From: Naegleria gruberi
Taxonomy: Eukaryota
DNA: 64,000 nt
NCBI GenBank assembly: GCA_000004985.1
Contig: GG738864.1
Strand: one strand, 5' to 3'
Of this stretch, positions 3-52,816 are shown in pieces (the first letter of the stretch is position 1; every line of letters begins with the position of its first letter). Both the position numbers and the translations under genes were made by a program. A model generated the notes under the pieces. It made no database searches, was not told where the DNA came from, and worked only from the letters and a program-made list of their open reading frames with translations.

Positions 3-923
3 GAATTACAGGATTCATTCGAGGCAATGGCTCAGAGACGAAACAAGACTAATTTCTCTTCAAAAGTTTCAGTTTCCGTTTCAGTGCATGGCAAGAAACA
101 AATTTTTATTGTCTTTGTTCGTGATATTTCACCAGAAAAGAAACATAGCTTGCTAATTGCTGAGGAAAAGAAGAAGAGTGAAGATTTATTATTGAATATT
201 TTGCCCGTGTCAATGGCATCAAAATTGAAGAACGGCGAAGAGAATTTATATGAGAAAGTGAATGATATTACTGTTTTCTTTAGTGATATGGTTGGGTTTA
301 CTGCATGGAGTTCGAAATTGCAACCTAGTGAACTCGTTCAAATCCTGAACTCTATTGTTCATGGATTTGACAAGTTGACTGAAATTCACTTTATCGACAA
401 GATTAAAACTATTGGAGATGCTTATTTTTGTGTAAGTGGATTACACTCCTGTAAATCATCCGATCATCCAGAAAGAATGTTAAAATTTGCCATTGAAATC
501 ATGTCCTTTTTAAAGAGTATCAACACATCAAGTCAAACATTAATTAATTTGAGAATTGGTATTCACACAGGTGATGCTGTTGGCGGAGTTATTGGGTTTA
601 AAAAGTTTGCCTACGATCTGTGGGGAGATACCATCAACACTGCCTCTCGTATGGAATCAACATCACTTCCAGGGAGAATTCAAATTTCCAGATCTAGCTA
701 TGGAAGAGTTTATGACCTATTCGAATTTGAAGAAAGATTAATTGAGGTGAAAGGAAAAGGACAATGTCAAACCTATCTACTAAAAGATAAACACCATGAG
801 AATCCAATATCCATGGATCCTGAGATGTTACACGTGGAAGATAATGATCAATTGGAAGTTTCACAAGGACCATTTTGTTCCAGTGATAAAGAGAGCCAGC
901 AACAAGAGGAATTAAAACAGTAA
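3..923 (+). CDS. class III nucleotidyl (adenylyl/guanylyl) cyclase, C-terminal catalytic-domain portion; 5' end lies outside the window
   Basis: The frame is open from position 3 with no upstream stop. Catalytic-domain motifs are present: FFSDMVGFTAWSS (metal-binding Asp), KTIGDAYFCVSG, LRIGIHTGDAVGGVIG and YDLWGDTINTASRMES. The stop is at 921-923. Confidence 0.8.
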   Translation, partial: ELQDSFEAMAQRRNKTNFSSKVSVSVSVHGKKQIFIVFVRDISPEKKHSLLIAEEKKKSEDLLLNILPVSMASKLKNGEENLYEKVNDITVFFSDMVGFTAWSSKLQPSELVQILNSIVHGFDKLTEIHFIDKIKTIGDAYFCVSGLHSCKSSDHPERMLKFAIEIMSFLKSINTSSQTLINLRIGIHTGDAVGGVIGFKKFAYDLWGDTINTASRMESTSLPGRIQISRSSYGRVYDLFEFEERLIEVKGKGQCQTYLLKDKHHENPISMDPEMLHVEDNDQLEVSQGPFCSSDKESQQQEELKQ

Positions 924-17835: not shown

Positions 17836-20800
17836 ATGCTCTCCGATCAAGATTATCAGAAACATAAGAGGAGGAAGGAAGAAGAGGAAAAGAAGAGAAA
17901 GGAAAGAGAGGATGAATCTTCTTTGCCTTCATCATCATCTAATTCCACTCCTCAACAATATGAACATCAAACTCTGAATAATAATATTGTGATAATAGAT
18001 GGTGATGACACTGATAGTAATGATGCTGTTATTATCACCTCTCCAACAATTCAAGAACAACAAACAGCTAAATTTGGTTTTCTAGTCAATAGTCAAGAAG
18101 ACAACAATAATTCATCATCATCACCACATGTTACAGGTAGTAGCAATAAGAAACGAAAGACTACCAGTCACTCTCCTTTAACAACAAATATTTCTCCTAT
18201 TAAACAAGAAGAAGACATGTCTTCTACTGTTCCACCCAATCAACAAGAACAAACAGCCAACAATAACATGGTGATGATGGATAACAACAATAGCAATGAA
18301 AAGCCTTCTACACCCAAACAAGGCACAACAACAACAAATTCCGATGAAGATGATGTTATAATGATTGAGAGTAATGAAGCAACACTTTCACCTTCCTTGT
18401 TACACAAGATGCAAGGTTCTCTAAAGATTGAAGAATCACAACAACAGGAACAAACTAACACTAGTGCAAGTACTACTACCATTCCATCATCATCGGAATT
18501 ATCAGATAATAATGATACATCATCAAAACCTTCGGAAGAGAATGATCAACAACAACAACAAGAAGGCACCAACAATAATAATACGGTTCTTCTCAATTCT
18601 GTCAAGACAATAACTGAAAACACTGGTGTGAGAATAGTGGTGCATGCCTTCATTCCTCCACAGTACACTGATGATCTACAACCAGCCTTGAGGTACAGTT
18701 ATAAGGAAATTACAGGTTCGGGGAAAAACAAGAAGGAAGAAGTTAAAAAGGTAGACATTCCACTGGGTCACACTCCTGTTGAGGGTCTGGATATTTGGTT
18801 TTGTGTTGTGAAATTGCCACTTCAAGTTGATTTCGTGAGCTTTAAGATTATTGTTAGAGATGAGAGTAAGGCAATTCATACTGATAAAGAGGTTAGATCG
18901 ATAACACTTCCAAAATATACCACTCCAGCTGTTCATCACATCTATATTAACTTTAATCCAAAATCAGAAAAGAGACAGGGAATTTTGGACATGTTCAAAA
19001 CCAAACTTTCAATGACTGAAACCTTTTTAACAGAGTTATTTACTCCTTCCAAGATTGATACTGGTGATTTATTGCCATCTGATACTGAGAATAATGTTTT
19101 TGAGAATTTAATTAGAATTAACAGAAAACGAATTCAAATATTTCATTCAAGATTGGATGGGTTTATGCAAAGTATGGCTCATCTCAGTGATTTGAATTTT
19201 TACACTAAAATACACATCAAACAAAATTATACCAGCACCAACAGACACAATTTAAAGTCACCATATGTGTATGAGGATACCAAAAAGTTTCTCCTTTCTT
19301 TACCAGAAAAGATCATTCAGGATAAGACTGATTTCGAATTGAAATTGATAATGACCCTTGTATTCTTTGAAAAGATTTATTCCATCTCTGGTCACAATGA
19401 TAAGAAGAACTTTGATGAAATGATTGATCTTTTGAAAGAATTGGATGTGTATACACTCAATACTATATTTCATCACATTTTGAAAAAGGAAGCAGAAAAA
19501 TCTACACCAATCAACTTGATTAGAGATTCATTCAGAAATTCCATTCAAGCTCTGATAAATGTCTTTTCGGCCACCACAAATGACAAGAGAAAGTTTAGCT
19601 ATTGGATTATGGCTGCTCCATTCATTAGTCTTGAATTGAAGTTTCACGGTAGCACCAGTCCACTGGATATGCTGATAATGCAATCTGATAAGAAGAGGTT
19701 CGATACAGAATTTGCCACCTTGACTTCAATAGTTGAAGAGAAAAGAGCACTCATTTCGAATAGATCTCATGTCGTGTCTGGTACAGATATTGGTATTATA
19801 TTCTCAACAATTTTTAAAATGGCCTCCTCTCTTAATGATATCAATTGTATTCTAACATTAACATCAGATATGCAATCGAATGAAGGAAGGTTCAGATCTT
19901 TCACCACTCAACTATGTGAATTCATTTCTAATATGGATTCTTGGGAAGATAGTGATTTTGATTCCTTTACATATTTATTGGAAAATCATTCATACGTTCT
20001 TTCTAGCACATCTATGTTGGCAAGTTATTTCAAGAATAAGGCTCTCAGTGAAGTTAGCCACTACCACTCTGAGAATATTTTGAAGCATTTACTCATGTTC
20101 CTTGAAAATGAAGAATTCGTTGCTAATAACAAAGAAAAGGATCTCATTTCCCTGTCAAAACTCATAGCCAACTTCTTTTCTACATTGTTTGGAAAGAAAA
20201 AGTCAAGTTACAACCTCTTTAAAAAGAGTGTCTATTCAATGAAAGATATAGTTGCCTTTTATTCTAAACTTGCAGAATCCTTATCAAAAACTTGTATGAA
20301 TGACTATCAACTTATTATCATTGAATCCATTTCCAATAACTCTTCCTTCACTTCCAGCGGTTCAGACCCGTATTCAAGGATTACATCTCTTATAGAAATT
20401 TGTGAAGAGTTTGAATTGGATGAAAGGGCAACACTTGGTAATATTCTTGCTCAATTGACTTTGGATACAGTCAAATCATTGGGAGTTAGCAACAAGGTAA
20501 TCAACAAACTCTTGGATACTGTCTCAAGGTTCTATGCAGACAGTATTGATATTACAATTGATGTTGTTTCCAAGAAAGTTTTAATGTACATAATAGAAAC
20601 ATTGAGTGAGGGATCATCAATGACCATCGAGATATTGTTCAAACATCACTTGTTGTGGAGTCGTTTATTTCAACTCAATGATATTTTCACAGACAAGAAA
20701 TTGATTGAAGGAGTACAGCTAGTGGACAAATTCTCCCAACAAATCAATAACCATACCATCGCCCTAAATGATCTGAGAATTATTTTAAGAGATGACAATC

Positions 20801-23800
20801 AAGATAGGTTCGTATCACTGGCAACATATTCCGGTGTCAGTGTTATTTCCAAGAATACTCTGATAGATATTGACTTTCAGGTTCAATACTTTGAAACACT
20901 ACTGAAACAGTGTCACGACTTTTGCAACCATTACTGTCAACATGATAATGTAAATAATGAATTCAGGTTGCTATTGGAAAAGATTGAAGCTGAAATCCAA
21001 AATAATGCCGTATTTAGTAGTATCAATTCAAGCTTCAATAATTTTGCCTTCCTTAAAGAGCTTCCAACCCTTCAACATTTATGTAAATCCGAGCTCTTTT
21101 TACAATTCTGGAACGAAACCATAGATCAAATGGTTGAAAGTCTGGTTACTGAAACTGAATCCACCTCAAAGATAATATTCACAATTAATGATTTGAAATC
21201 CCGAGTCTATCCACAAGTAGTTCAAAAATGGCTCCAGTTGTACAATAATCTGAACATGAAAACTATTTCATTTTTAGAACTTCAAACATTATTCAGTGAT
21301 AATACTGAGGAGGAGACGTTCCAAGATATGCTCTTCCTCAAAAGAACTTGTCAATCAACTGATAACATGCTTGATGGAGATGCCACTCAATTCCACCTTA
21401 TCAATGAAAACAATCAAAGTTATATTCAATGGTCAAGAGAACACGCCCAACTCATCTCGAGTTTTTTAACTATAGTCAAACAAAAAGAGTACATACCAAT
21501 GATAGTTTCTATTTTGAGCAAGTTTAACAGTAATTTTTCAACTTCTGTTTTCACAGATTCGTACTATGTTAAGATTGAAAAAATTCACAAGTACATTCTT
21601 GAGAAATGGGAATCTGGAAACCTCTTTGATATTGTTGACATGGTCAATGAAGCCAAATCGGCATTGCAACATTTGGGAAAGAACGAATTACTATTGATTG
21701 AATTTTTGAATGAATCTGATGATTTATTGAATTGGTTATGGCAACACAATGATTCCAGTCAATTCAATGAATTGATCAGAGTTTGCAGAGAAGTTACTGA
21801 TGATGCTATCATATTGCAGTCATTTGCTTCTCTTACAAGTGCCAGAGAATATTTGTACGAGTTGGTTTATCCATCAAGAAAGTTTACCAGTTGTGAATCC
21901 TTTTTGAGGGCAATCAACACAGCCAACTTGAACAAGGATGATACAGAAATTCAAAGGAGATTGACAGACTGTAAAGTTATTAGATCAAACTTGGAGAATG
22001 TCAAACAAGTATTTAAAGAAAAGACGAGAAGCCCCTCTGTGACTGCTGTTTTAAAGCTTTTAGAAATTATAAGTGGTGCGACCATATCTGTAACAACAAT
22101 TAATTCTATCTCAGAGGATAATTATATTATATGTAATGTAAAAGGCAAGATCACACACTTGAGTGATTTGATTGATATTAGAACAACAGTGTTAAATACC
22201 ACCATTCCAAACGAACTGAAGGAGAAACATATTAACTTGGATGCTGCTATCGATACATTCTGTAAATTAGTTAACATTCTCTCATCAATGAAGAGAACTT
22301 TAATAGAATTAGGCATCAATGGTAGTATGATAGTTGATAATTACGAGTTTACCATCACTCTGAATGTTGATAATTTAGAATATTTATTATTCCAATTTAT
22401 GGAGGAAGAAAAGAGACTGTCAGAAATGAATTCCAACTGGAAGTTAACGATCAAGAATATTAGATTGGAATATAATTTACTGAATTACTTCAATATGCGA
22501 GAGTTGAGAAAACTCATAAAATGGCTCGATATGATAAAGGAAGGAAATTCTATAGTTGGAGAAAGAGTATATTCCATGCTCAAGATTATTGATAATAATC
22601 TCACTCTTCAACAGTACAAATCATTTGAGAAGGAATGGATCGATTACGATATTATGGTGGATGATGATATTCAATTGATATCACTTGGTTCATGTCTGAA
22701 TTCACATTTCAATCTGATTGAGGATAGTCACGAACAAATCGATTTCCTGCCAAGTTCCGATTTGGGCATGTCTACAATGAATGTAGAGAAAAATAACAGC
22801 AAGCAAAACCTTATCGTCATTGCATGCCAAAATGATCAAGAGGTTGAATCTATTGTTTATTCTTTGTATGCTGTTAAATCCATTCTACCACAAGTTGAAG
22901 AAGTACTCATGTGCAGACCAAATACAGACTTTGAAGATATTGAATTGGTTGTAAGAAGATGGTCAAAATCGGAACACAAAAAGCAAATATTTACATTGGC
23001 TAACATTCAACATTTGGACTATACTTTACAATGTAAAGTAGTGGACATGCTTAAAAATTATTTACAAACAAGTACAACATTAGCAACCTTAGCTATTGTT
23101 TCAAGTACTCAACAACAGAGAATTATCAATGCCTTCTCTAACTTTAGATTTGATGGGTCTCCACTTTCTTCTGAGGACTTGAAAGACTCTCTTCTTCAAA
23201 TTGCCAAACCTGGAAAGTTTTCTTCAGGTGTTAATGTTTACACTAGCCCTATGGCAGGTTGTGGTAAAAGTCACACAATATTTGAACGTTCTCACATTGA
23301 GAAAAAGAAGCTAGTCTACATTTCTCTAAGAGAGTCAGTTAACATTACAGAATTAATTAATCAATTGAATGAGAAAACTAGGAATAGCCAACCTGTAACT
23401 TTGCACTTTAACATTGCTCCAAATGTGGATACCATTGTTAATTCAATACTTTTCGAATTGATTGTAATAGGTTCACTCAGAGATCACCAATGCAACGTTT
23501 ACCACAGAAGGCCAATAGATTCTATTGCAATAGAAATACCAAACCAAGTTGGAAATAGAACTCTTGTACGTTCTGTTCCATTCTGTAAATATCTACCAAG
23601 AGTAGAATGTATTGTTTCGGCTCATACACTCTCCATCGAAAGGAAATACGAAATTGGTACTAATGGTAGTGTGATGGTCTCAAACAATAGAAAGCTAAAA
23701 TATGTTTGCTCATTATTATTGGCTCATCAAAATGGCGTCTTTGTCAATAATAACGGAACCGATTTCGTTAACTTTACACCTAACATGGACAATATGAACA

Positions 23801-26800
23801 AGGAGGAATGTTTAACCATTCTCACAAGATATTGCAATGCTGGAGGTCAGATATCGTATGCTCTTATTAATAATTTCGTAGAGTTTACTTTTGAATTCTT
23901 TGAAAATATGATGGATTATGAGGTTTTAAGATTTTTACCATCTCTAGATCCTGGATTTGCAACTTTACCTCAATCTATTGTAGGAATGATTTTGGAAATG
24001 TCAAAAGACTTTGCTATTAGACAATTGGTGTTCAATTTTAATACTGACAATCCTTCTTTGGAGGAATATTCTAACAGATTCTCAAGTATTAGAAAGTGGG
24101 AAGAATCAAGTCACCCAGTCATTATTTTCACCAAAGAAACTTTCCAATGTAATGGTTTCAACGTCATTTCCTTGGATCAATCTTCAGTTAATAGATTCTT
24201 CCCAGAACATTTGAGAGCTCTCCTCCATGAACAAGGAATTAATATCAACTTTGACTTTAAGAAAACAGTAGAGGAAAAGGGTCAAAGAGCAGCAGAACTA
24301 GAAGGACTCAAATTCTTGCAAATGATATCTGGAAGTTTTTCTCTTGATGAAGAGATGGGTGAAATCATGAAAATAATGCTAATTTCAAAGCTAGATGAAA
24401 CAGATTATGTTCTCACACAAGACAACTTGATGAAAATGATTGCCATTATTTACAGATTCAAATCCAATCTCCCTGTCATTTTACATGGTGAATCAGGTGG
24501 TGGAAAGACTTATTTGATTAGTCATTTATGCAAATTTTTAGATTATCAATTATATAGAATGACACTTCATGGTGGTAATACTGAACAGGATATTTTCAAT
24601 TTTTTGAATAATATTGTTATTGAAGCCAATAGTCATGCTATGGCAACATATGTTGCGTTCATTGATGAGTGCAACACATGTTCAGCAATGGCAATTGTTA
24701 AGGAAGTTGTATGTGATGGACTTTTGAATGGTGTGAAAATACCTGAGAATGTGAAAATTGTTGCAGCTTTGAACCCATACAGATTGAAGAACGAGAAGGC
24801 AAAGCAATTGGAGCAATCTATTCAATCTCAAACAGGAATCATCTACAAGCATCCTTCATTTGCCAACATTCCTGATCCATTGGAAAATCTTGTTTATAGA
24901 GTTCATCCACTTCCAGATAGTTTTGTTGATCACTTGTATGATTTTGGTTCTCTTTCTGATGGTGTTGAAAGATTATATATTGGAAGTATGCTAAGACAAT
25001 CTCTAAAGAAGTATTTGAAGGCAGACGAGAATGGAAAAATAACAAATGAAACTGTTCGCCAAGCTGTCAACTTCTTTGAAAGTCTTATTCATGCCTCTCA
25101 AGTTTTTATTAGACAAACAATGCACGAAGAAAGTTCTGTCAGTTTGAGAGATGTGAGAAGATGTATACAAGTATTTTATTGGTTAGTAGAAGAGTATCAC
25201 AATCCTACTTCTGTCTTTAGAGATGTACTCAACTTGGATCACCATCACGGTAATGAAATATTCAATACTCACAACAAACACTTTAAAAACTATGTCATGT
25301 TGTCTCTTAGTTTTGCCTTTTACAGTAGATTGAACAGACAAGAGAGAAGTGGCTATTTGAGATACCTCTCAAAAGAATGTCCAACCATTGTTCCATCAGA
25401 ATTTGAAAAATTACTCACCAAATATCAAACAAAACTTACAGAACAGATGAATATCAGTGAAGGTATTGCCCTCAACGAAGCCCTCACAGAAAACATCTTT
25501 GTCTTGTTCCTTGCTCTTGTTAATCACATTCCTCTTTTAATTCAAGGATATCCAGGAACATGTAAGAGTTTGGCAGTTGATTTAATCAGTAAATCTATGA
25601 GAGGTAAAGCATCTAACAACAAACAGTTGCAACACTTGCCAGATATTAACATATTTGCATTCCAATGCTCACCTTTATCAGAAGCTAAAAGTATAGCCCA
25701 AACATTTAGAGCAGCAAGACAATACGCAAAAGAAAGTTCTGGATCTTCTTCATTATCAGTAGTTCTTTTAGATGAAATAGGTTTGGCAGCTGACAGTCCA
25801 AAGTTACCTCTCAAGATTCTTCACCAAGAATTAGAAAATACTGCAGAAATCAGTGTAGTATCCATCAGTAACTATTCTCTAGATAGCTCCAAGATGAACA
25901 GAATGTGTGTACTTTACAGATCTACTCCCTCTGCAAAGGATCTCAAGGATACTGCTAAAGGTATCATGAGATTCCACAAAAGCTTTAAATTACAAAGTTA
26001 TTTGGAACCTATTGCTACCAGCTATTTGGAACTTTACAAGAATCAAAGAATTAAGCAATTCTTTGGTTTACGTGACTTTTATAATTTGGTTAAATTCCTT
26101 TATAGAATTATCAATAACAAGATGACATACCACGGAAGACCTATTGAATTTGAAAAATCATTGGTCTTATCAGTTCTGAGAAATTTCGGAGGTATTCCAA
26201 GTGAAGACATGGATAATGTTCTTAAGATTTTTGAAAGAAACACAGGTATCAAATTTACAGAATATGAAAAGCCAAATAGTTGTAACCTTTTGAGGTTGAA
26301 TTTGAAGGACAGTGCTGATGCAAGACATTTACTTGTGCTAACGAACAACAATTCAGCATTGAATCTGTTATTTGACTATGAAATACTTTCTCTTTCTAGT
26401 ACTATTGTATTATTTGGAAGTGATTTTCCAGATGAAAAGAATGATAACTTTAGTCTTTCACTTCAATTACAAAAAATCAAACTGGCTATGTCAGAAGGAA
26501 ACACAGTTGTCTTGGTTCATTGTGATTCACTCTATGAAAGTTTGTATGATTTGCTAAACCAGCACTATGTAGTTGTTGAAAATAAGAAATTCTCTAGACT
26601 TGCCTTTGGTAACTCATCTGTTACTTGTCCTGTACATGATAACTTTAGAATTATTATCATTGCTGAAGCTAGTGATGCTTACACCAAGTTGGCCATTCCA
26701 TTCTTGAATAGAATGGAAAAGCATGTGATTCTAAGAGATGACATGATGAACGAAGACAATACCAATTTACATTCCCAATTATCTGCTTTTGTGGAAAAAT

Positions 26801-29800
26801 TAATGGCTCAATTGAACGAAAAGGAGATTTCAAAGGTATTTATTGGATCTCACAAGGAAACTCTTAAAAGTTTGGTTCAATCCATCGAGCCAAAGGATAG
26901 TATGGTGGATGAAGAAATAACTGAACAGATGGATATTGCATTTGACAAACTTTTATGGAACATGACACCAGAAGCTGTCATTAAATCAAAGAATGAGAGA
27001 ATAATGAAGCACTACTTTGAGGGACAAGAACATTCATCATTGCCAAGTTTCTTGAATAATGTTTTTACTGATATTCAAAAATGGCAAGACAAATTTGGTG
27101 GTATTCAAGCTATTGTTACAACCTTCTCCTCATTGCTTAGTGAAGTTGAACTTCTTATTAGAGATCATGTTACTGTTGTGAAAGAAAAGCAGGTTCACTT
27201 ACAATTCCTAGAATTGCACGATATGAAGACTAGTAGTGATTTGAATACTGAATTGGATCACTTTTTCGCCTCTAACCACAAAGAGTCAATGCTTGTTCTT
27301 CTCTGTGATCCTGTAGCTGCTTCTACAAGAAGAATTCACTATGCTCAATATACATGTGAAAGTAAGAGAAATACATTCAATGCTGCTGGAACTGGTAACA
27401 TTAGACACGTCATTTTCTTGGTAAATTTATCCAGAATTCCAACAGAAAGTTCCAAGTATTCATTCGATTTTGATAGACGTTGGAATTATGTATTCATTGA
27501 TGACGTTTCTAACAGTGAACAACAACAAGGTTTCCCTGAATTGTTCGAACTTGTCAATACTCCTTTCTCAAATCTGATTAACAATACTCTTTCTGTTGAA
27601 CAAATTATTTTGGAAAATTTACACAACTCCCTTTCCAGAATAGTTTATCCATTCCCGAGATCATCTTCTCAAATTCAATCACAACTTTCCATGCTAAGGA
27701 AGTGGCTCTCTCAATCCAGTAGATATTCAGCCAGATTCACCAAACTTATCAGAGAAAAGGTTATTGATATTGTCAAACACTCAATCAAGAATGACGAACA
27801 GTGGTACCTTCAAGTGATCAATAATGACAAGAATATTTTACAAATATGTGGTACTCTTCGTTCTGCAATTCATTACTTTATTTCAAGAATTGTTTTTATG
27901 GCCTTCTCATCAATCTTGAGTGTCATGGATAGATATAATAATTTACAATTATTGGATCAAGAAAATGATTCAGAAACCCCACAATTATGGTTAGATGTTT
28001 TTGAATATGATGTTCACAGTAAGCTCTTTGAAAGTGCTGCCTTTTCAATGAACCAATCAGGCTATGTTAATATTTTGCAAGGAACTTCAAAGCACTTTGA
28101 TGCCAAATTCCCTTTCAGTTTCATTTTTGCTACAGTGGCAAACTCTTTCAGAGTGAATCACTTGGTAGATCAATTCTCCAGAGAAGATCTTGAAAAACAC
28201 TTTGAATTCACCTTGCCAAGATTCGTCAAGTATCATGCTGATATTGGAGATGAATGTATTGTGGATGACGATATTGACATGAACGACGAAGGATCAGATA
28301 AGATTCTCCTTCCTAATGACTTAGTCTCTGGCTATATCAACGATTATCACTACTTGTTTGGATCAAAGAATTGCAATATGCTTCCAAGTGAGAATGATCA
28401 ACTTGTTCTCATCCATGAACTGATTTCAAAGGACAGATTACCTGACCAGTACTATTCCTTGTTAGATTCTCAAATTTCATATTGGAACAATGAAAAGAGA
28501 GTGAAAATTTACTTCCAAGTATTTGACTCTCTGAAAGATAAGAATGTACTCGAAAAATTCTTAAACTCCATCCCATCATGTAGAACCATTGCAGAAATGG
28601 ACATGCTTCTTTGTGAATTAGTAATTGTTCACTTCAATCCAGAATATCACATTACCTTAGAAAGTGATCCTGTAGAAAACAATACTTGGGTAAGAAATGT
28701 TAGAAACATGACGGCAAGTATGACACGTCTCTTAGATTTGCTCAAGGATCCACTCATGTCGGCTGAAGTCAATGTCGACGTTGCAGAGAAATGCTCAAGC
28801 TTATCTCATCAATGGAAATGCATCAAATTCTTTGCTCACTTCCTCAAAGATCTTGTCATTAGTACTGAAAATTTGATTGACTCTGATATTACAAAGAAGT
28901 ACTGGGAAAAACTAAATGGTTCAGGAACAAGCCACTTTTACCAACCAAATGCTCTTGTGGAGTTCCTTCAAACATTGACAGACATTAACAAGAAGTGTAC
29001 TAGAGAGGAATCGTCTGAAGATTTTGAATGTTTCATTTGTCTTTCTGTTCCTGATCCTGATAGCATTAGAACAACAGTTTGCTGCAAGAGATATATCTGT
29101 TATGATTGTGCTGATGAATTTTGTCAATATCAAAAGAAATCAAAGCAATGCGGATGGTGTCAAAAAGAACTCGACAATGATGAAACTGTGGATACCTATA
29201 CTATTCCTTGTTCTAATATTTTGAAGGAAGTTGAAGATATTTCACAAAAGGAAACTCTCTTTATTGAAAAATCCACCAAGCTCATTGAAACCTTCATTAC
29301 CATGTTTTGTGTTGAAAGAGGAATTTCAGATATGCTCATTAGAGACATTATTAGTTATATTTGTGAAAACAAAAAGTTCCTTTCCGAACACAAACTCCTC
29401 AAGTTTATTCTCTCAGATTCAATGAAGAGTTCCATTATTCGAGCACTCTTCTCTTTAAAGAGAAAGGACCCTAATCAATTCGATCATGTAGCTGCTTACT
29501 TTGAAGAGAACTTGAAGGTCCTCCATACTCAATCTAAAAATGTCGACTTCCCAATTGCTGTTTCGATAAATCAAATCTTGGAGGATGAAGCAGAGTTTTA
29601 CTCACAAGACGAAGAAGGAAAGATTAATTTGGAATATATTTTACAAACCTTGTCAAGAAATGGTTTCAGCTTGGCTTTGGGTAATGATTTCGTTGGTTTC
29701 CTCAACAATACCAGTATTGCAAAAGTGGCTGTCAAGTACTTTGTGAAATTACTCCTCAACAACAAGTTATTCGATCAAAAATCTGCTAAAAAGCTTGTTG

Positions 29801-32697
29801 ACTCTGTGGGTAATCTATTCACACAAAGTGAAAACTTGATGCTCTACTTTTTGAGAGAATTGACCTCTGTTGTTGGTCTATCTGAAACTAGAGATATTAT
29901 CAATAATAGCCAGCTACTTGGAAGTATCAAGTTTATTCAACAATGGAAAGAGAAGGAAGACGTTGCTTCATTCCTCAAAGATTCTGTTTTATCATTGTCA
30001 AATCCATTCCTCAATCTTCCTTTGTACGAACAAATTTCCAAATCTATTTCTGAGATTAGACTCTCAAACACCGATACTCTATTCACAAAACTCTACACAT
30101 TCCATAGAGAACGTAATTCATTGCATCTCTTCTTAGCTGGAGTGCTTGTCGTAGTTTTGGAAGAAGTTACGCTTTCAAACAAGATGGGAACTAGAAAATT
30201 TGAAAATCTCAAAACTTGGGTAGATAGAAATCAACAATATTTCCAATTATTAGGTGGAATTTCAATTCATCCACTTCTCTCCCAATTGATTACTAATAAG
30301 GTATCTAACTTTGCAAATATTAATCCAGAAACACTGATGACACAAATTCAACAATTGAGATGTATCATTCATTTAATGTTCATGATATTCACCAATTCAC
30401 AATCACTGGGGTTCTTCAGTGCATGCTTGTTGAGCCCTCAGAATTTGTTGAATAACATGTTCCCAACCATGAACGATGATGTCATGTCAGGATTGAGTAG
30501 TATCACCAATGGTAGAATTTATCAATGTCCATCTGGTCACTTGTACATTATCACAGAATGTGGAAGAGCTGCAACAACAGGACGCTGTCCAGAATGTGGA
30601 CAAGAGATTGGAGGATCCAACCATAACCTACTCAATACAAATAGAGAATACTTTGCCAATGACCAATCAGCTCCAACTAATCTCTGTCGTAGAAATGCTA
30701 CAGAAGAAAGTGGACCAGCAGATGTGTACTTGAGCCAGAGAAGTCTCTCACCAATTGAGGTTAGATTTATCAGATTAGTTATGAGTGGATTATTGTTTGC
30801 ATCCAGCTCATTCCTTGGTAAGGATTGTGCAATGATTATCAACACTAGATATGCCAATCCAAGAGATGTTTCTTCCTTCTTCTTTGAACACTTTATCAAT
30901 GATTGGAATATACTCTCTAGACTGTTATCAAAGAATGACGAACAAGTAAGCATTATCGTTCACAATCTCATTACGAGAATGACTTTATCAAATGTGGTGT
31001 TGGATAATCAATTGATGGTCAAGACATCTCGAGAAAATTTTGAAAGATTGTTGAGTGAAACCATCTTGCAAGGTGCTCTCAAGAGTGATAAAATTATGCA
31101 AGAAGTGGAAAACATGATTAGAAATCACCAAACTTCAGTAGAAGGAAGAAATAATCACAAGAATGAAAAGCTTTCACATGCCATTCAGTTTACAGAAATT
31201 GCAGACAGGGATGTAGTGAAACTTCAACCTTCTCTGTTTATGAAATTGGAAAATATCACTTTTGATCACTTTTCAAATACATTCAAACAATCCAAGAATG
31301 ATTATCCAATTCTAAGCACAGTCATTGAGGAAATTGTATCACTACAAGCCCTTCAATATTTACCAGATATTTTCAAAATGTACGTTGAAGTTTGCAAGAG
31401 ATGTGACAAGAAATTGAGAAAAGAGCAAACTATAGAACAAAATATTGGACAATTCATTAATGATATTCAAGATCCTATCGAGAGAGAAAATCTTGCTATT
31501 CACTTTGATGGTTTTGCTAGAGCATGGAATATGGTTTTCAAATATGTGGAAATGTATGAATGTTTGGTTATTCCTGAACAAATGAAAACTATTAGAATGG
31601 GACTGGATAAACCATTAGTATTCATTCTTCCACACGAGAAGGATGAATCCATTTTTGGAATTGCATTAACCCACTATCTCATTGGTATTCATAACAAGTT
31701 TGTTAAACTTACCAATAGTGCAGAAACAGATGTGAGAGTTATTTCTAGCTCTGATTTGGATACTTCTCTAGCATTCAAGTTTAGTTTGAAAGAAGATTTA
31801 ATGCCTTTCGTGAGAGATCACTGTAGAAGACCTATTTCATTTAAATCCACAGACTCGATCAAGTATGACTTTGAGTTTATTCAACAACACGTTGTGGATC
31901 ATTTCTTATCCGGCAAACCACTTGTAGAAATCAAGATCAAGATGATTGAACTAATGGGAGAATTGAGAGCTTCTGGTGCAAAGGAAAGATTTACCAACCT
32001 CAAGAAGACCAACAAGAATTCCAAGAAGGAAGGATCTGACAAGTTCACTGACGAGGAAAGAATTACTATTTTGAATGAACTTGGAGGAATTAATGGAAGA
32101 TCAGATCGGTGTGTCAAATGTTTTAGAATGGTAGAAATGGCTATCCATTTCATTCAAGCCAATACTGTCTCTGTTAGCTCTCTTTCTTCAAACATTTTAG
32201 AAAAACCACTTGTTCAATATTTGGAAAAAGATTTGATGATGACAGGAGCCAGACAACTCTTCGGTGCTTCATTGTCCTCCATGATACGTATCAAACATTT
32301 GGATAATTTATGGGAATTATTGGAATCACATCTCACTGTTGATTCATTCTCTTCAGTTCATGCAAATTACAGAAAGGAATTGAGCAAAGATTTGGAACAA
32401 ATCCTCCTCACAAAGGTTGCTCCTAAAATTGATCTTAAAGTTTTCTTGTCAGCCCTTAAAGAAGCAATTCAAACTCACTTGACAGAACCGTACTCGGACA
32501 TGAACCAAGATTTAAAACAATGGCTTTCCTATTTACCTATTCCAGATAATTTTGTTCAAGGTACTGGTGAGCATGCCAATTCTGAATTGGAAACAATTTC
32601 TGACTTTACATGGTTTAAACATGTTCCAGATAATTTGTTTACCTTGGCAATGGCTTTGGAGGTTTTCAAAACATTGGAGACTTTGGTAAAACAATAA
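17836..32697 (+). CDS. RNF213 (mysterin)-like giant E3 ubiquitin ligase / dynein-like AAA+ ATPase, 4953 aa, single exon
   Basis: Two AAA modules carry canonical motifs: Walker A GESGGGKTY at about aa 2218 with Walker B VAFIDE, and Walker A GYPGTCKSL at about aa 2570 with Walker B VVLLDE. An earlier degenerate P-loop MAGCGKSH is present. A RING-like finger lies at about aa 3733 (CFICLSVPDPDSIRTTVCCKRYICYDCADEFCQYQKKSKQCGWCQKEL). An RZ-type zinc finger lies at about aa 4228 (YQCPSGHLYIITECGRAATTGRCPECGQEIGG). Domain order and spacing parallel human RNF213 (AAA3/AAA4 Walker motifs at about 2420/2770, RING about 4000, RZ about 4490). The N-terminus is Asn/Ser/Gln-rich and low-complexity. Confidence 0.85.
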   Translation: MLSDQDYQKHKRRKEEEEKKRKEREDESSLPSSSSNSTPQQYEHQTLNNNIVIIDGDDTDSNDAVIITSPTIQEQQTAKFGFLVNSQEDNNNSSSSPHVTGSSNKKRKTTSHSPLTTNISPIKQEEDMSSTVPPNQQEQTANNNMVMMDNNNSNEKPSTPKQGTTTTNSDEDDVIMIESNEATLSPSLLHKMQGSLKIEESQQQEQTNTSASTTTIPSSSELSDNNDTSSKPSEENDQQQQQEGTNNNNTVLLNSVKTITENTGVRIVVHAFIPPQYTDDLQPALRYSYKEITGSGKNKKEEVKKVDIPLGHTPVEGLDIWFCVVKLPLQVDFVSFKIIVRDESKAIHTDKEVRSITLPKYTTPAVHHIYINFNPKSEKRQGILDMFKTKLSMTETFLTELFTPSKIDTGDLLPSDTENNVFENLIRINRKRIQIFHSRLDGFMQSMAHLSDLNFYTKIHIKQNYTSTNRHNLKSPYVYEDTKKFLLSLPEKIIQDKTDFELKLIMTLVFFEKIYSISGHNDKKNFDEMIDLLKELDVYTLNTIFHHILKKEAEKSTPINLIRDSFRNSIQALINVFSATTNDKRKFSYWIMAAPFISLELKFHGSTSPLDMLIMQSDKKRFDTEFATLTSIVEEKRALISNRSHVVSGTDIGIIFSTIFKMASSLNDINCILTLTSDMQSNEGRFRSFTTQLCEFISNMDSWEDSDFDSFTYLLENHSYVLSSTSMLASYFKNKALSEVSHYHSENILKHLLMFLENEEFVANNKEKDLISLSKLIANFFSTLFGKKKSSYNLFKKSVYSMKDIVAFYSKLAESLSKTCMNDYQLIIIESISNNSSFTSSGSDPYSRITSLIEICEEFELDERATLGNILAQLTLDTVKSLGVSNKVINKLLDTVSRFYADSIDITIDVVSKKVLMYIIETLSEGSSMTIEILFKHHLLWSRLFQLNDIFTDKKLIEGVQLVDKFSQQINNHTIALNDLRIILRDDNQDRFVSLATYSGVSVISKNTLIDIDFQVQYFETLLKQCHDFCNHYCQHDNVNNEFRLLLEKIEAEIQNNAVFSSINSSFNNFAFLKELPTLQHLCKSELFLQFWNETIDQMVESLVTETESTSKIIFTINDLKSRVYPQVVQKWLQLYNNLNMKTISFLELQTLFSDNTEEETFQDMLFLKRTCQSTDNMLDGDATQFHLINENNQSYIQWSREHAQLISSFLTIVKQKEYIPMIVSILSKFNSNFSTSVFTDSYYVKIEKIHKYILEKWESGNLFDIVDMVNEAKSALQHLGKNELLLIEFLNESDDLLNWLWQHNDSSQFNELIRVCREVTDDAIILQSFASLTSAREYLYELVYPSRKFTSCESFLRAINTANLNKDDTEIQRRLTDCKVIRSNLENVKQVFKEKTRSPSVTAVLKLLEIISGATISVTTINSISEDNYIICNVKGKITHLSDLIDIRTTVLNTTIPNELKEKHINLDAAIDTFCKLVNILSSMKRTLIELGINGSMIVDNYEFTITLNVDNLEYLLFQFMEEEKRLSEMNSNWKLTIKNIRLEYNLLNYFNMRELRKLIKWLDMIKEGNSIVGERVYSMLKIIDNNLTLQQYKSFEKEWIDYDIMVDDDIQLISLGSCLNSHFNLIEDSHEQIDFLPSSDLGMSTMNVEKNNSKQNLIVIACQNDQEVESIVYSLYAVKSILPQVEEVLMCRPNTDFEDIELVVRRWSKSEHKKQIFTLANIQHLDYTLQCKVVDMLKNYLQTSTTLATLAIVSSTQQQRIINAFSNFRFDGSPLSSEDLKDSLLQIAKPGKFSSGVNVYTSPMAGCGKSHTIFERSHIEKKKLVYISLRESVNITELINQLNEKTRNSQPVTLHFNIAPNVDTIVNSILFELIVIGSLRDHQCNVYHRRPIDSIAIEIPNQVGNRTLVRSVPFCKYLPRVECIVSAHTLSIERKYEIGTNGSVMVSNNRKLKYVCSLLLAHQNGVFVNNNGTDFVNFTPNMDNMNKEECLTILTRYCNAGGQISYALINNFVEFTFEFFENMMDYEVLRFLPSLDPGFATLPQSIVGMILEMSKDFAIRQLVFNFNTDNPSLEEYSNRFSSIRKWEESSHPVIIFTKETFQCNGFNVISLDQSSVNRFFPEHLRALLHEQGININFDFKKTVEEKGQRAAELEGLKFLQMISGSFSLDEEMGEIMKIMLISKLDETDYVLTQDNLMKMIAIIYRFKSNLPVILHGESGGGKTYLISHLCKFLDYQLYRMTLHGGNTEQDIFNFLNNIVIEANSHAMATYVAFIDECNTCSAMAIVKEVVCDGLLNGVKIPENVKIVAALNPYRLKNEKAKQLEQSIQSQTGIIYKHPSFANIPDPLENLVYRVHPLPDSFVDHLYDFGSLSDGVERLYIGSMLRQSLKKYLKADENGKITNETVRQAVNFFESLIHASQVFIRQTMHEESSVSLRDVRRCIQVFYWLVEEYHNPTSVFRDVLNLDHHHGNEIFNTHNKHFKNYVMLSLSFAFYSRLNRQERSGYLRYLSKECPTIVPSEFEKLLTKYQTKLTEQMNISEGIALNEALTENIFVLFLALVNHIPLLIQGYPGTCKSLAVDLISKSMRGKASNNKQLQHLPDINIFAFQCSPLSEAKSIAQTFRAARQYAKESSGSSSLSVVLLDEIGLAADSPKLPLKILHQELENTAEISVVSISNYSLDSSKMNRMCVLYRSTPSAKDLKDTAKGIMRFHKSFKLQSYLEPIATSYLELYKNQRIKQFFGLRDFYNLVKFLYRIINNKMTYHGRPIEFEKSLVLSVLRNFGGIPSEDMDNVLKIFERNTGIKFTEYEKPNSCNLLRLNLKDSADARHLLVLTNNNSALNLLFDYEILSLSSTIVLFGSDFPDEKNDNFSLSLQLQKIKLAMSEGNTVVLVHCDSLYESLYDLLNQHYVVVENKKFSRLAFGNSSVTCPVHDNFRIIIIAEASDAYTKLAIPFLNRMEKHVILRDDMMNEDNTNLHSQLSAFVEKLMAQLNEKEISKVFIGSHKETLKSLVQSIEPKDSMVDEEITEQMDIAFDKLLWNMTPEAVIKSKNERIMKHYFEGQEHSSLPSFLNNVFTDIQKWQDKFGGIQAIVTTFSSLLSEVELLIRDHVTVVKEKQVHLQFLELHDMKTSSDLNTELDHFFASNHKESMLVLLCDPVAASTRRIHYAQYTCESKRNTFNAAGTGNIRHVIFLVNLSRIPTESSKYSFDFDRRWNYVFIDDVSNSEQQQGFPELFELVNTPFSNLINNTLSVEQIILENLHNSLSRIVYPFPRSSSQIQSQLSMLRKWLSQSSRYSARFTKLIREKVIDIVKHSIKNDEQWYLQVINNDKNILQICGTLRSAIHYFISRIVFMAFSSILSVMDRYNNLQLLDQENDSETPQLWLDVFEYDVHSKLFESAAFSMNQSGYVNILQGTSKHFDAKFPFSFIFATVANSFRVNHLVDQFSREDLEKHFEFTLPRFVKYHADIGDECIVDDDIDMNDEGSDKILLPNDLVSGYINDYHYLFGSKNCNMLPSENDQLVLIHELISKDRLPDQYYSLLDSQISYWNNEKRVKIYFQVFDSLKDKNVLEKFLNSIPSCRTIAEMDMLLCELVIVHFNPEYHITLESDPVENNTWVRNVRNMTASMTRLLDLLKDPLMSAEVNVDVAEKCSSLSHQWKCIKFFAHFLKDLVISTENLIDSDITKKYWEKLNGSGTSHFYQPNALVEFLQTLTDINKKCTREESSEDFECFICLSVPDPDSIRTTVCCKRYICYDCADEFCQYQKKSKQCGWCQKELDNDETVDTYTIPCSNILKEVEDISQKETLFIEKSTKLIETFITMFCVERGISDMLIRDIISYICENKKFLSEHKLLKFILSDSMKSSIIRALFSLKRKDPNQFDHVAAYFEENLKVLHTQSKNVDFPIAVSINQILEDEAEFYSQDEEGKINLEYILQTLSRNGFSLALGNDFVGFLNNTSIAKVAVKYFVKLLLNNKLFDQKSAKKLVDSVGNLFTQSENLMLYFLRELTSVVGLSETRDIINNSQLLGSIKFIQQWKEKEDVASFLKDSVLSLSNPFLNLPLYEQISKSISEIRLSNTDTLFTKLYTFHRERNSLHLFLAGVLVVVLEEVTLSNKMGTRKFENLKTWVDRNQQYFQLLGGISIHPLLSQLITNKVSNFANINPETLMTQIQQLRCIIHLMFMIFTNSQSLGFFSACLLSPQNLLNNMFPTMNDDVMSGLSSITNGRIYQCPSGHLYIITECGRAATTGRCPECGQEIGGSNHNLLNTNREYFANDQSAPTNLCRRNATEESGPADVYLSQRSLSPIEVRFIRLVMSGLLFASSSFLGKDCAMIINTRYANPRDVSSFFFEHFINDWNILSRLLSKNDEQVSIIVHNLITRMTLSNVVLDNQLMVKTSRENFERLLSETILQGALKSDKIMQEVENMIRNHQTSVEGRNNHKNEKLSHAIQFTEIADRDVVKLQPSLFMKLENITFDHFSNTFKQSKNDYPILSTVIEEIVSLQALQYLPDIFKMYVEVCKRCDKKLRKEQTIEQNIGQFINDIQDPIERENLAIHFDGFARAWNMVFKYVEMYECLVIPEQMKTIRMGLDKPLVFILPHEKDESIFGIALTHYLIGIHNKFVKLTNSAETDVRVISSSDLDTSLAFKFSLKEDLMPFVRDHCRRPISFKSTDSIKYDFEFIQQHVVDHFLSGKPLVEIKIKMIELMGELRASGAKERFTNLKKTNKNSKKEGSDKFTDEERITILNELGGINGRSDRCVKCFRMVEMAIHFIQANTVSVSSLSSNILEKPLVQYLEKDLMMTGARQLFGASLSSMIRIKHLDNLWELLESHLTVDSFSSVHANYRKELSKDLEQILLTKVAPKIDLKVFLSALKEAIQTHLTEPYSDMNQDLKQWLSYLPIPDNFVQGTGEHANSELETISDFTWFKHVPDNLFTLAMALEVFKTLETLVKQ

Positions 32698-50495: not shown

Positions 50496-52816
50496 TTATT
50501 GCACTAAACATTTCTTTTGTGGACGAACTTTACTACAATAATTGTCATCTCTGGTGACGGCAATTGTTCTCAAAATGACACTACTCAAATCATCAATGCC
50601 ATATCCTGTTTTGGAGCTAGTTTCAATATAAGTGGCACAACCCATCTTTTTGGCCATCAACTCTCCTTGTTCGAATGTGATTGGTTTTTCTTCATATTTA
50701 AGAATGAACTCCTTATTAAGAATTGAATCAGTACGATAGTCAATCTTGGTATTCACTAATGCCACAGGAGTGTCAGGACAGTGGTGTCTGATTTCTGGAA
50801 GCCATTTGGTGACAACATTGAAAAATGAAGCCTCTGACACACAACTAAAGTTCACTAAGAACAAAGATGTCCCTGGGTAGGACTATTACAATATTATTAC
50901 AAAAAATATAATTTCAATACTTACCAATGGACGCAATCTAAATAATATTAAGAAAACAAAAATAAAAATGATTAATTACCTATCATAATCTAAAATTGAT
51001 TAATTTCAATTAAATCCATTCAAAAAAAACTTACCTTCAGGACCAGCAGTATCCCTTTGTAAATGTTAACAATTATTAAAGAGATAGCTCAAATAACTTA
51101 CCATAGACCGATTGAATAAGTCTTGTCTTCAACTTTTACACTGATATTGTGATTGTCAAACACAGTTGGAATATAATCATTTGGATAATCTCCAGAAGTA
51201 TACCGTATTAATAGTGTTGTTTTACCAACTGCTCCATCTCCTACCGCAACAACCTTAAAAACACCATAAGGAGGATACTTGTCTAACATTTCAACCACAT
51301 GAGAATAGTTTAAAAGTTCAGACTTGGAACAATACTGTCTACCATCTGTACGTTGTTTTACCTCCTCAATTTTCAATGTTCTTTCAATATTCTTCTTTTC
51401 AACTTTTGACATGATGGCTTGAACAGCTTGAATGAGATTTTCCTTGTAATTTGACTTTTTACGTAAATAGGAATCGAAAATTCTTGATTGAGTGGTATCA
51501 AAAACATATTTACGAAGCACATAATCATAGGAACCAACAGTTTGCTTTGATGCCTTCTTAAAATCACTCAATTTTTTGAAATAAAAATCTTCCCAATATT
51601 GATCTTCAGTTGTTAAAGTGCAAATTCTCAATGATTTGGAAACCAAATGTAATTTCATTAAATCTTGAATGCTAAGAAATGATAGAACTGTTCTGAAAAT
51701 GTCATCATTCACCTTCTCATTAAATAAGTCAATATTAAATGAGCTTGTTTCTGATTTGATTATTGATTTTCCATCTTTCTTACTTGAAGTAATAGACGTA
51801 GTTGTTGGTGGAGAAACTGTAAAAACGTCAGGAGTCTTTTGAAATAATCCTCCAACTACAAAATAAGTAATAGAGGAATCAGTGGAAGGAATTTGCACAA
51901 GAGCATGAAGTACAGGTTGAGCTTCTTCCTTATTAGAATCATTGAAAATGGATGAAAGAGAATGAGTTGTATCAATCTTCCAACCTTGGCTAACATTTCC
52001 CAAATCAAGACATGTACAATCTGTGAAATTTTGATTTTGATTACAACCACCAACACTATACAATGTGTTTCCTTCCAAAACCATTGAATGTCCATATCTA
52101 GCAAACTGTTCACTCAAATTTGATGCAATAATCTCAGCATTAACTACCAATCTGTCAACACTCTCTACCAATGAATCAAGTGAAATCTTAATTGTATCTC
52201 TAATAATGGAATTAGCTGTTTTACCTCCATGAATATACCACTCTCCTGTTTCCTGATTCAAAACAGATGCATGATGATATCTCTTTGCAATTTGTTGTGA
52301 ATTTGATTCAATTTCCACAACTTTCCATTCAAATGTAGTCAAATTCAATTTGAATAATTCATTGGATGCAAAGCTATTATTATCATAACCACCAAACACA
52401 AATAATTGATCCTTAAAAACCACAGCTGATTGACCATAACGAGGAGAAATCAAATCTGATCCACTAGTCTGTAACTGTGTCCATAAATTATGTTCAAATT
52501 GATACAACCAAACATCTTTATGAAAACCATTCGATTTACCACCAAATAAAATCATTTCGTCTCGATTTCTCAAATAGGCAGAGTGACAATTTCTTGCACA
52601 TGGAATTAATTGTTGTTCTTGTTGATCAATTGATGTTAAATTCCTCCACAATTGTGTTGTAACATTAATTTCAATTAGATCATTACAATAAATGAGTGGT
52701 CTTGCTGAGGAAATGTCTGGATTTTTAATATAACCTCCGAATAGATAGATTTTATTGTTGTCTCTGTAAACACCGCTGTGACCAATACGAAGTGGTAGTG
52801 TGGAGAGTAATGACAT
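50496..52816 (-). CDS. Kelch-repeat / F-box / atypical Rho-family GTPase fusion protein, five exons
   Basis: Exon 1 is 51102..52816. It has Kelch blades (IYLFGGY, ILFGGKSNG, LFVFGGYDNN, WYIHGG, LYSVGGC, YFVVGGL), an F-box-like segment (DDIFRTVLSFLSIQDLMKLHLVSKSLRIC) and the Rho G1-G2 region KVVAVGDGAVGKTTLLIRYTSGDYPNDYIPTVFDNH...IGLW. The micro-exons are 51035..51054 (DTAGPE), 50980..50989 (DYD) and 50925..50937 (RLRPL). The last exon is 50496..50882 (SYPGTSLFLVNFSCVSEASFFNVVTKWLPEIRHHCPDTPVALVNTKIDYR ... ETSSKTG ... CLVQ, a CAAX box). The introns are 42-47 nt with GTAAGT/GTAATT donors and TAG/AAG acceptors. Confidence 0.75.

Follow-up and report, generated by a model that had tools for sequence, protein, structure and literature searches.

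The Locus and Its Reading Frame

The stretch of Naegleria gruberi DNA analysed here (64,000 nucleotides of contig GG738864.1, assembly GCA_000004985.1; hereafter the window) contains a single-exon open reading frame (ORF) at 17836..32697 on the + strand, which begins with ATG and encodes 4953 aa followed by a stop codon. The evidence set out below indicates, with a probability of roughly 0.87, that this gene, NAEGRDRAFT_79490, encodes a full-length giant AAA+/E3 ubiquitin ligase of the RNF213 (mysterin) family. RNF213 is the main gene behind susceptibility to Moyamoya disease and, as an unusual effector of immunity, places ubiquitin on bacterial lipopolysaccharide. An earlier note on this DNA had proposed just such a protein, an RNF213-type full-length ligase with two active-looking AAA modules, and that proposal is strongly supported.

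The limits of the gene are well marked. In-frame TAA and TAG codons stand immediately 5′ of the ATG, so that the frame could be extended only by way of an intron, and a convergent gene begins 40 bases past the stop. At the local base composition (per-codon stop probability 0.0735) a run of 4953 stop-free codons would arise by chance with P ~1e-164. The product is identical, by exact-sequence match, to N. gruberi NAEGRDRAFT_79490 (EFC45119.1, XP_002677863.1, UniProt D2VDC3), which was deposited as a "hypothetical protein" at NCBI and as an "RZ-type domain-containing protein" in UniProt. The ORF lies where the earlier note had placed it, with all of the motifs quoted there, and the deposited gene model consists of the same single exon, which bears out the view that this is one gene and not several. 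Pseudogene status or decay was considered and rejected, since the 4953-codon frame is open and every catalytic residue is intact. NAEGRDRAFT_79490 is an intact, selectively maintained gene.

The locus is embedded in a scaffold of 441,990 bp, with N. gruberi genes on both flanks; exact matches to N. gruberi proteins were obtained for six neighbouring ORFs as well, and the GC content of the gene (0.344) is close to that of the window (0.341). The earlier note had thought of an amoebozoan-type genome. The exact matches of the ORF and the tested neighbours place the DNA instead in N. gruberi, which belongs to Heterolobosea, in Discoba. An intronless frame of 15 kb had also been singled out as notable in a genome that uses introns elsewhere. 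Introns do occur elsewhere, as in a Kelch-GTPase gene at 50496-52816 (−) that has several GT..AG introns, but the two closest full-length relatives, here called P0116 and P0122, are likewise uninterrupted ORFs of ~14.3 kb, and the intronless state is therefore typical. P0116, the closest of all, occupies positions 324-14663 of contig JBBCKJ010005299.1 (GCA_037189345.1; contig GC 0.429) and encodes 4779 aa in a single ORF.

Family Assignment

When the whole protein was compared with all PDB chains by phmmer (cut-off E 0.01), RNF213 alone was found, at E 8.8e-166 for the mouse protein and 6.7e-160 for the human one. The match to mouse RNF213 comprises two large collinear stretches: residues 1664-3244, which correspond to the AAA ring, and residues 4187-4887, which correspond to the E3 shell, RZ finger, E3 core and C-terminal domain (CTD). 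With the AAA3-AAA4 block as query, RNF213 was matched in the PDB at 2e-75; the next family, midasin, followed at 2.5e-9 and through the P-loop alone. Scanned with Pfam (E<=0.1), the whole protein showed only the RZ finger and, at each of its two Walker A sites, P-loop families of the AAA type. Direct alignments and profiles together make ~80% of the protein homologous to animal RNF213, with the modules in the same order.

The distances between modules were compared as well. The earlier note had described the spacing as proportional to that of human RNF213, and this is borne out by the three intervals compared, with human residue numbers taken from the literature (PMC11549300). The AAA4 Walker A lysine and Walker B glutamate are separated by 70 residues in both; the interval from the AAA4 Walker B to the RING histidine position is 1105 residues in Naegleria and 1169 in human, and that from the RING to the RZ nucleophile is 490 and 502 residues, respectively. 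The term orthologue, used in the same note, is too strong, because some protists have several paralogues; family member is the safer description.

The AAA Ring

Residues 1664-3244 (22825..27567, +) correspond to a dynein-like AAA ring that is collinear with AAA1-AAA6 of mouse RNF213 (phmmer 446 bits, i-E 1.3e-132 against 6TAX); RNF213 has itself been described as a dynein-like AAA protein (PMC7311170). Judged by these alignments, AAA1 and AAA2 are collinear with the RNF213 ring. The AAA2 module has a P-loop only, SPMAGCGKS (aa 1804-1812; 23245..23271, +), which aligns with mouse SERAGVGKS, and in mouse RNF213 AAA2 is a structural ATP site (PMC7311170).

Complete Walker A and B motifs are confined to AAA3 and AAA4, the two consecutive modules for which the earlier note had claimed them, and both sets align with human RNF213. 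In AAA3 the Walker A motif GESGGGKT (aa 2218, with Lys2224; 24487..24510, +) aligns with human GETGCGKT, and the Walker B motif VAFIDE (aa 2273, with Asp2277-Glu2278; 24652..24669, +) lies in the stretch FIDECN, which corresponds to human FFDEAN. Beyond it follow ALNPYR, with a sensor-1-like Asn2313, and then a long loop that ends in LVYRVHPLP; the ending LVYRVH(A/P)LP is common to human RNF213 and the Naegleria protein. The AAA4 Walker A motif, GYPGTCKS (aa 2571, with Lys2577; 25546..25569, +), aligns with human GKPGSSKS. Both sequences are of the form GxxGxxKS rather than the strict GxxxxGK[ST], a pattern that is found at AAA3 only. The AAA4 Walker B motif VVLLDE (aa 2642, with Asp2646-Glu2647; 25759..25776, +) begins the stretch VVLLDEIGLA, against VVVLDEVGLA in human, and Walker B-like hhhDE motifs occur at the AAA3 and AAA4 sites only. 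Across 48 aligned family sequences Glu2647 of the AAA4 Walker B never varies; the Walker A lysines, the AAA3 Walker B Asp-Glu pair and the asparagines at sensor-1-like positions hardly do, and all are kept in the Naegleria protein.

A structural comparison of the AAA core leads to the same family. The AlphaFold2 model of aa 2150-3250 (AAA3-AAA6), built with 47 homologues, has a mean predicted local distance difference test score (pLDDT) of 87.2 and a predicted template modelling score (pTM) of 0.84. In a Foldseek search of the PDB the top eight matches are all RNF213, at E 8.4e-71 to 1.6e-60, with query-normalised TM scores of 0.68-0.73 and 27-29% identity over ~1100 aligned columns. Dyneins form a second tier at E ~1e-23, TM ~0.5 and 10-12% identity. 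The modelled AAA3-AAA6 ring fold is of the RNF213 type.

These searches bear on the idea that the gene might encode a different AAA+ giant, dynein or midasin, or be a decayed gene with a chance zinc-finger-like motif. Some resemblance is real: the ring is dynein-like in fold, and the P-loop region is weakly similar to midasin and to Pfam AAA_5, which matches it weakly. However, the lead of RNF213 over dynein and midasin amounts to 45-65 orders of magnitude, in sequence and fold searches alike, so that the best matches fall where the earlier note had expected them. The homology of the E3 module is specific to RNF213, and an open frame of 4953 codons with its catalytic residues intact is incompatible with decay. 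This explanation is effectively refuted, and the chance that we would still allow it is very small. The rejected identities can be stated separately. For dynein and midasin, the margin in the searches is decisive, and no similarity to either was detected outside the AAA ring; the E3 half matches RNF213 alone. An identity with ZNFX1 was likewise rejected, because helicase and NFX1-type zinc-finger families are absent from the whole-protein Pfam scan and a dynein-like AAA ring is present instead.

The RZ Finger and the E3 Module

The RZ-type zinc finger occupies aa 4225-4270 (30508..30645, +) and is recognized by Pfam PF20173 with 71.6 bits (E 3.9e-20; cut-off 27). The RZ-like sequence YQCPSGHLYIITECGRAATTGRCPECGQEIGG lies at aa 4229-4260. 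The zinc ligands are C4231, H4235, C4251 and C4254, with C4242 as the predicted nucleophile and H4263 as the predicted general base; their counterparts in human RNF213 are C4505, H4509, C4525, C4528, C4516 and H4537, in the same order (PMC11549300). In the phmmer alignment all six residues fall in the columns of mouse RNF213 with identical spacing, and the Cys/His pattern announced in the earlier note thus aligns with RNF213 residue for residue. Just upstream lies a conserved helix (FPTMNDD in the Naegleria protein, LPTMPED in mouse), which corresponds to a region that has been proposed to bind ubiquitin (bioRxiv 10.1101/2025.10.14.682297).

The remainder of the E3 module and the CTD extend over aa 4271-4905 (30646..32550, +). 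Residues 4187-4887, which include the finger, align with residues 3881-4566 of mouse RNF213 (6TAX construct numbering) at 116 bits and E 5e-33.

The region between the two stretches that match directly was traced by other means. Residues 3244-4187 gave no significant direct PDB match (phmmer, E 0.01), and a word-index search with aa 3244-4300 gave no match either, in an index that yielded no proteins longer than ~2000 aa. A profile hidden Markov model (HMM) was made exclusively from protist sequences; it covers the stretch that begins 1050 residues upstream of the RZ finger and ends 60 residues before it, and thus excludes the finger itself. Its hits in animal RNF213 are collinear and reach E 1.3e-51 to 8e-14 (database size 177,635 sequences). 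By this bridge aa 3181-4171 (27376..30348, +) would comprise the end of the AAA ring, the hinge, the E3-back, the RING position and the start of the E3 shell. Individual relatives also cross the region: fish rnf213-beta aligns with residues 3704-4699, spanning the RING position, and the relative P0125 with residues 3183-4946. On this evidence the hinge, E3-back, E3-shell, E3-core and CTD are all homologous, at the level of sequence, to those of RNF213.

The N-Terminal Region

The protein begins with a low-complexity extension (aa 1-255; 17836..18600, +) rich in Asn, Ser, Gln and Thr, which is probably disordered. These four residues make up 48% of the first 250 positions, in agreement with the Asn/Ser-rich N-terminus described in the earlier note. 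The N-termini of P0116 and P0122 are also of low complexity.

Behind the extension lies a β-rich segment at aa ~262-375 (18619..18960, +), the site at which relatives carry a carbohydrate-binding module of the starch-binding type, CBM20. In human RNF213 CBM20 is found at residues 378-515, also behind a disordered N-terminus (PMC11549300). Of the full-length protist relatives, two have a Pfam CBM_20 match above the cut-off, P0138 with 38.1 bits and P0182 with 25.5 bits, and three more, P0202, P0244 and P0122, have one below it, in each case N-terminally. The module thus appears, from these matches, to be old in the RNF213 family, being present in protist relatives and in the human protein. For the Naegleria segment itself the CBM20 identity is unproven: hhalign places aa 262-375 in register with the profile of the relatives' CBM20, at a probability of 3.7% and E 0.011. 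A single-sequence AlphaFold2 model of aa 251-405 has seven strands and is poor (pLDDT 57), and its Foldseek matches are meaningless. Pfam at E<=10 gave nothing credible in aa 1-1655, and residues 1-1663 gave no significant direct PDB match (phmmer, E 0.01).

The C-terminal half of the N-arm can be traced with more success. A protist-only HMM for this half (aa ~924-1654; 20605..22797, +) matches the N-arms of animal RNF213 in collinear order (E 7e-20 to 4e-9), and P0122 aligns from within the N-arm onward, over residues 937-3698. A protist-only profile for the N-terminal half of the arm (residues ~254-924) found no match in animal RNF213.

The RING-Like Cluster

At the position homologous to the RING of RNF213 the Naegleria protein has a degenerate, RING-like cluster of nine cysteines (aa 3732-3775; 29029..29160, +), which starts within FECFIC at aa 3730 and has the pattern C-x2-C-x13-CC-x4-C-x2-C-x4-C-x8-C-x2-C. 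The animal RING follows C-x2-C-x(10-12)-C-x-H-x2-C-x2-C-...-C-x2-C. The Naegleria cluster precedes the RZ finger by 499 residues, within the range of 461-540 seen in relatives. P0116, which reads RCCDHVICLKC where the Naegleria protein reads VCCKRYICYDC, keeps a canonical C3HC4 RING.

The points that weigh against the assignment to RNF213 are found here and in the N-terminal region. Arg3752 occupies the canonical position of the His ligand, and the RING is in that sense degenerate; zf-RING_2 matches the cluster with only 15.5 bits (E 0.021), below its cut-off of 27.3. For the first ~920 residues no similarity to animal RNF213 could be detected, and even the alignment with P0116 starts only at aa 544. 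Finally, everything in the mechanism proposed below that goes beyond the conservation of motifs is carried over from mouse and human RNF213.

The earlier note had listed a RING-like finger as part of the full diagnostic set of RNF213. The AAA modules and the RZ finger of that set are in place, and so is the cysteine cluster; as to the RING the set was overstated, given the missing His ligand and the sub-threshold Pfam score. "RING-like" is the correct wording for the cluster. Arg3752 sits where a variant found in a human patient, H4014N, is predicted to interfere with zinc binding (PMC11549300), and the bivalve relative P0192 has an aspartate at the same position. Among relatives, a RING-like cluster is found in 17 of the 52 that span this position, 15 of them canonical, and the RZ nucleophile cysteine in 93 of the 94 with a locatable RZ core, with the full CHCCCH signature in 63 of the 94; these counts are lower bounds, as the pattern scan may miss odd spacings and some gene models may be faulty. 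A canonical RING is not a defining feature of the wider family, and the Naegleria cluster departs from that of vertebrate RNF213.

It might be argued that the RING-like cluster, rather than the RZ finger, is the working E3 element, acting by a classical RING-type mechanism. A cysteine-rich cluster does occupy the homologous position, and zf-RING_2 does match it, weakly. Against this stand the replacement of the His ligand by arginine, the non-canonical spacing, the lack of a recognizable RING in about two thirds of relatives, nearly all of which have the RZ nucleophile, and the behaviour of mammalian RNF213, which can do without its RING but not without its RZ finger (PMC11549300, PMC7311170). 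We consider a RING-type mechanism very improbable. The same mammalian findings mean that a degenerate RING in Naegleria is no argument against activity.

Relatives and Origin of the Gene

With aa 3700-4899 as query, exhaustive searching by HMMER brought up 1413 representative relatives at E<=1e-3, 65 of them at <=1e-30, and many are full-length proteins of 4000-5400 aa. P0116 is collinear with the Naegleria protein over residues 544-4905 (2094 bits); its identity is 41-53% through most of AAA3-AAA6 (residues 2001-3250) and 20-35% elsewhere. The best named match to the AAA core is EP00761_P011055 of Pharyngomonas kirbyi, a heterolobosean. The other named protist matches are to dinoflagellates (Polarella, Symbiodinium, Cladocopium, Amoebophrya) and foraminifera (Reticulomyxa, Nonionella), and further matches were found in a cercozoan, in Paratrimastix (Metamonada), and in cnidarians, bivalves, amphioxus, a hemichordate and vertebrates. 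Judged by these matches, the family is spread over Discoba, Metamonada, Alveolata, Rhizaria and animals. Some protists have paralogues, two in the GEMP01 transcriptome and many in Reticulomyxa.

In a neighbour-joining tree of 524 columns of AAA3-AAA4 (300 bootstraps), Naegleria, P0116 and Pharyngomonas group together with 83% bootstrap support and animals with 97%; the Naegleria protein falls inside the animals in none of the 300 bootstrap trees. This placement, with the heterolobosean grouping, excludes a recent transfer from animals and fits vertical descent within Heterolobosea, as far as the sequences can tell. The tree is too crude to tell whether the family arose near the last eukaryotic common ancestor or was spread by ancient transfers. 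A protein named "E3 ubiquitin-protein ligase rnf213-alpha (Mysterin-A)" in its source (P0005) groups with Polarella and not with animals, and the name has evidently been transferred by similarity.

Recent horizontal acquisition from an animal, or contamination of the assembly, has one point in its favour: in published work RNF213 figures as a protein of animals or vertebrates (PMC7311170). The GC content of the gene is, however, that of the surrounding genome, the scaffold of 441,990 bp has N. gruberi genes on both sides of it, and the nearest relatives are heteroloboseans and other protists, with the Naegleria sequence never nested in animals. Such an origin is effectively refuted, and we give it almost no weight.

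Proposed Mechanism and Function

By analogy with mouse and human RNF213, the Naegleria protein is most likely an ATP-gated E3 that relays ubiquitin through the RZ cysteine C4242. Binding or hydrolysis of nucleotide at AAA3 and AAA4 would switch the E3 module on and help the protein to assemble cooperatively on the surface of a target. Ubiquitin would then reach C4242 by transthiolation from a Cys-reactive, UBE2L3-type E2, with H4263 as the general base and with C4231, H4235, C4251 and C4254 holding the zinc; the RNF213 matches in the PDB include UBE2L3 transthiolation-intermediate structures, which are one basis for this step. From C4242 ubiquitin would move to the substrate, possibly to a non-lysine or non-protein site. 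The RING-like cluster would be dispensable for catalysis. As to the target, the leading guess is the surface of an intracellular microbe or another large structure that bears lipids or glycans.

Naegleria is a bacterivore and a host to intracellular bacteria and giant viruses, and mammalian RNF213 coats and ubiquitylates Salmonella, Listeria and Toxoplasma vacuoles. It is possible that the Naegleria protein is similarly a cell-autonomous defence effector. Its targets for coating and ubiquitylation would then be bacteria, chlamydia-like symbionts or giant-virus factories in the amoeba. The full catalytic apparatus of mammalian pathogen ubiquitylation is conserved, and protist relatives have N-terminal CBM20 glycan-binding modules like that of the human protein. 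RNF213 is, moreover, induced in a cnidarian antiviral programme (bioRxiv 10.1101/2025.01.24.634691). On the other side, a CBM20 in the Naegleria protein has at best the weak hhalign match given above, and the genomic neighbours provide no immune context. To our knowledge Naegleria lacks an interferon system, so that induction of the kind seen in vertebrates would not be available to it. Defence is thus a possible role to which we would give well below even odds.

A housekeeping role on lipid droplets or on the surfaces of damaged organelles, with immunity added later, in animals, is another possibility of the same modest standing. The family has been kept across very different lifestyles, including those of photosynthetic dinoflagellates and foraminifera. 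RNF213 has been discussed with regard to lipid droplets (PMC8240858), and in a preprint mammalian RNF213 is reported to act on damaged mitochondria (bioRxiv 10.64898/2026.09.21.752888). The N-terminal third of the protein diverges rapidly, however, which speaks for a variable surface facing a ligand no less than for a housekeeping role. Defence against microbes and non-immune surface ubiquitylation seem about equally likely. An immune role in Naegleria is plausible by analogy, yet it is a conjecture, and so is the "ancient immunity module" of which the earlier note spoke.

A bolder scenario may be sketched, to which we attach a still lower probability. The full RNF213 machine, with its dynein-like AAA ring, RZ transthiolation module and probably an N-terminal, glycan-binding CBM20, might date back to the last eukaryotic common ancestor or close to it, to a time when the lineages of Discoba, Metamonada, SAR and animals had not yet parted. 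In Naegleria, a free-living amoeboflagellate that feeds on bacteria, it would still serve as a cell-autonomous defence ligase, independent of interferon, that coats and ubiquitylates microbes within the cell. Catalysis would have resided in the RZ finger from the beginning, with the RING as a dispensable accessory that was repeatedly lost or degraded.

Novelty and Significance

The sequence is already public and automatically annotated, and as a sequence it is no discovery. In the literature searched, no paper joins RNF213 with Naegleria or with the accessions of this gene, or gives a substantive treatment of protist homologues. RNF213 is described as conserved in vertebrates (PMC7311170); it is mentioned in the literature for cnidarians, corals and bivalves, and some dinoflagellate proteins already bear names derived from it, for example the Symbiodinium entry "RNF213, partial". 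The RZ finger of ZNFX1 is traced to choanoflagellates in a preprint (bioRxiv 10.1101/2025.10.14.682297). What is added here is the deep taxonomic position of the Naegleria protein, the natural degeneration of its RING and the occurrence of CBM20 across the family.

A full-length and catalytically intact-looking member in Naegleria, together with relatives in several supergroups, would move the origin of the machine far below the animals. The family also provides natural experiments, in the form of an arginine at the site of the Moyamoya-patient variant (human H4014N) and of many relatives that appear to be without a RING, in a family whose RZ nucleophile is nearly invariant. N. gruberi, a culturable phagocyte free of interferon, offers a setting in which the basic function of RNF213 could be studied.

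Other Genes in the Window

The Kelch-GTPase gene at 50496-52816 (−) encodes a Kelch-repeat protein fused to a small Ras/Rho-type GTPase. Its long ORF (51098..52816) ends in SIGLW followed by gtaagt, and the ORF at 50496..50864 contains the remainder of the GTPase. The G-domain is split into very short exons of ~10-20 nt (for example GGATACTGCTGGTCCTGAAG, which encodes DTAGPE), each flanked by GT..AG.

The gene at 10346-12244 (+) encodes an apparent secreted protein, with a signal peptide and long PT(K/E)PT and RPSRPS tandem repeats, to which the local GC content of 0.416 and AT skew of 0.165 can be attributed. In addition, the product contains a pair of small Cys-rich modules and a GDPHF motif that resembles the autoproteolytic GDPH found in VWD/RGM domains, and Pfam at E<=1e-3 matches nothing in it. 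At 27-923 (+) an ORF encodes the catalytic domain of an adenylate/guanylate cyclase (PF00211, E 3e-54); it is probably truncated by the start of the window. The gene at 53342-55471 (+) has an unusual architecture of BTB, pentapeptide repeats and TLDc, and it adjoins a gene for a leucine-rich-repeat protein at 55663-57033 (−). Both are identical to N. gruberi gene models whose sole annotation is "predicted protein".

Comparison with Known Systems

The protist relatives are the closest to the Naegleria protein and, like it, are encoded by single giant ORFs. They differ in that P0116 has a canonical RING, several others have no recognizable RING at all, and P0138 and P0182 have a clear CBM20.

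Vertebrate RNF213, as seen in the mouse (6TAX, 7OIK) and human (8S24, 9G08) structures, shares the order of modules over ~80% of the length, and with it the AAA3 and AAA4 Walker A and B motifs, the AAA2 P-loop, the LVYRVHPLP loop, and the six RZ residues with their spacing. Identity is nevertheless 27-33% in the AAA core and lower elsewhere. The first ~920 Naegleria residues are unrelated to the vertebrate protein at the level of sequence, CBM20 is not demonstrable among them, and the RING has Arg3752 in place of its His ligand. The Naegleria gene is a single exon, and its host is not known to have an interferon system.

ZNFX1 shares the arrangement of zinc ligands, nucleophile and base in the RZ finger, along with the ubiquitin-binding helix upstream of it (bioRxiv 10.1101/2025.10.14.682297), but belongs to the RNA helicases of superfamily 1 (SF1) and has zinc fingers of the NFX1 type as well as a Miz-like domain; the Pfam scan detected none of these in the Naegleria protein. 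Dynein and midasin (Rea1) resemble the Naegleria protein in having six AAA modules in one polypeptide that form a ring. In contrast, neither has an E3 module, dyneins are only 10-12% identical to the Naegleria AAA model, and the dynein motor site finds no parallel in mouse RNF213, where AAA1 is without Walker motifs (PMC7311170).

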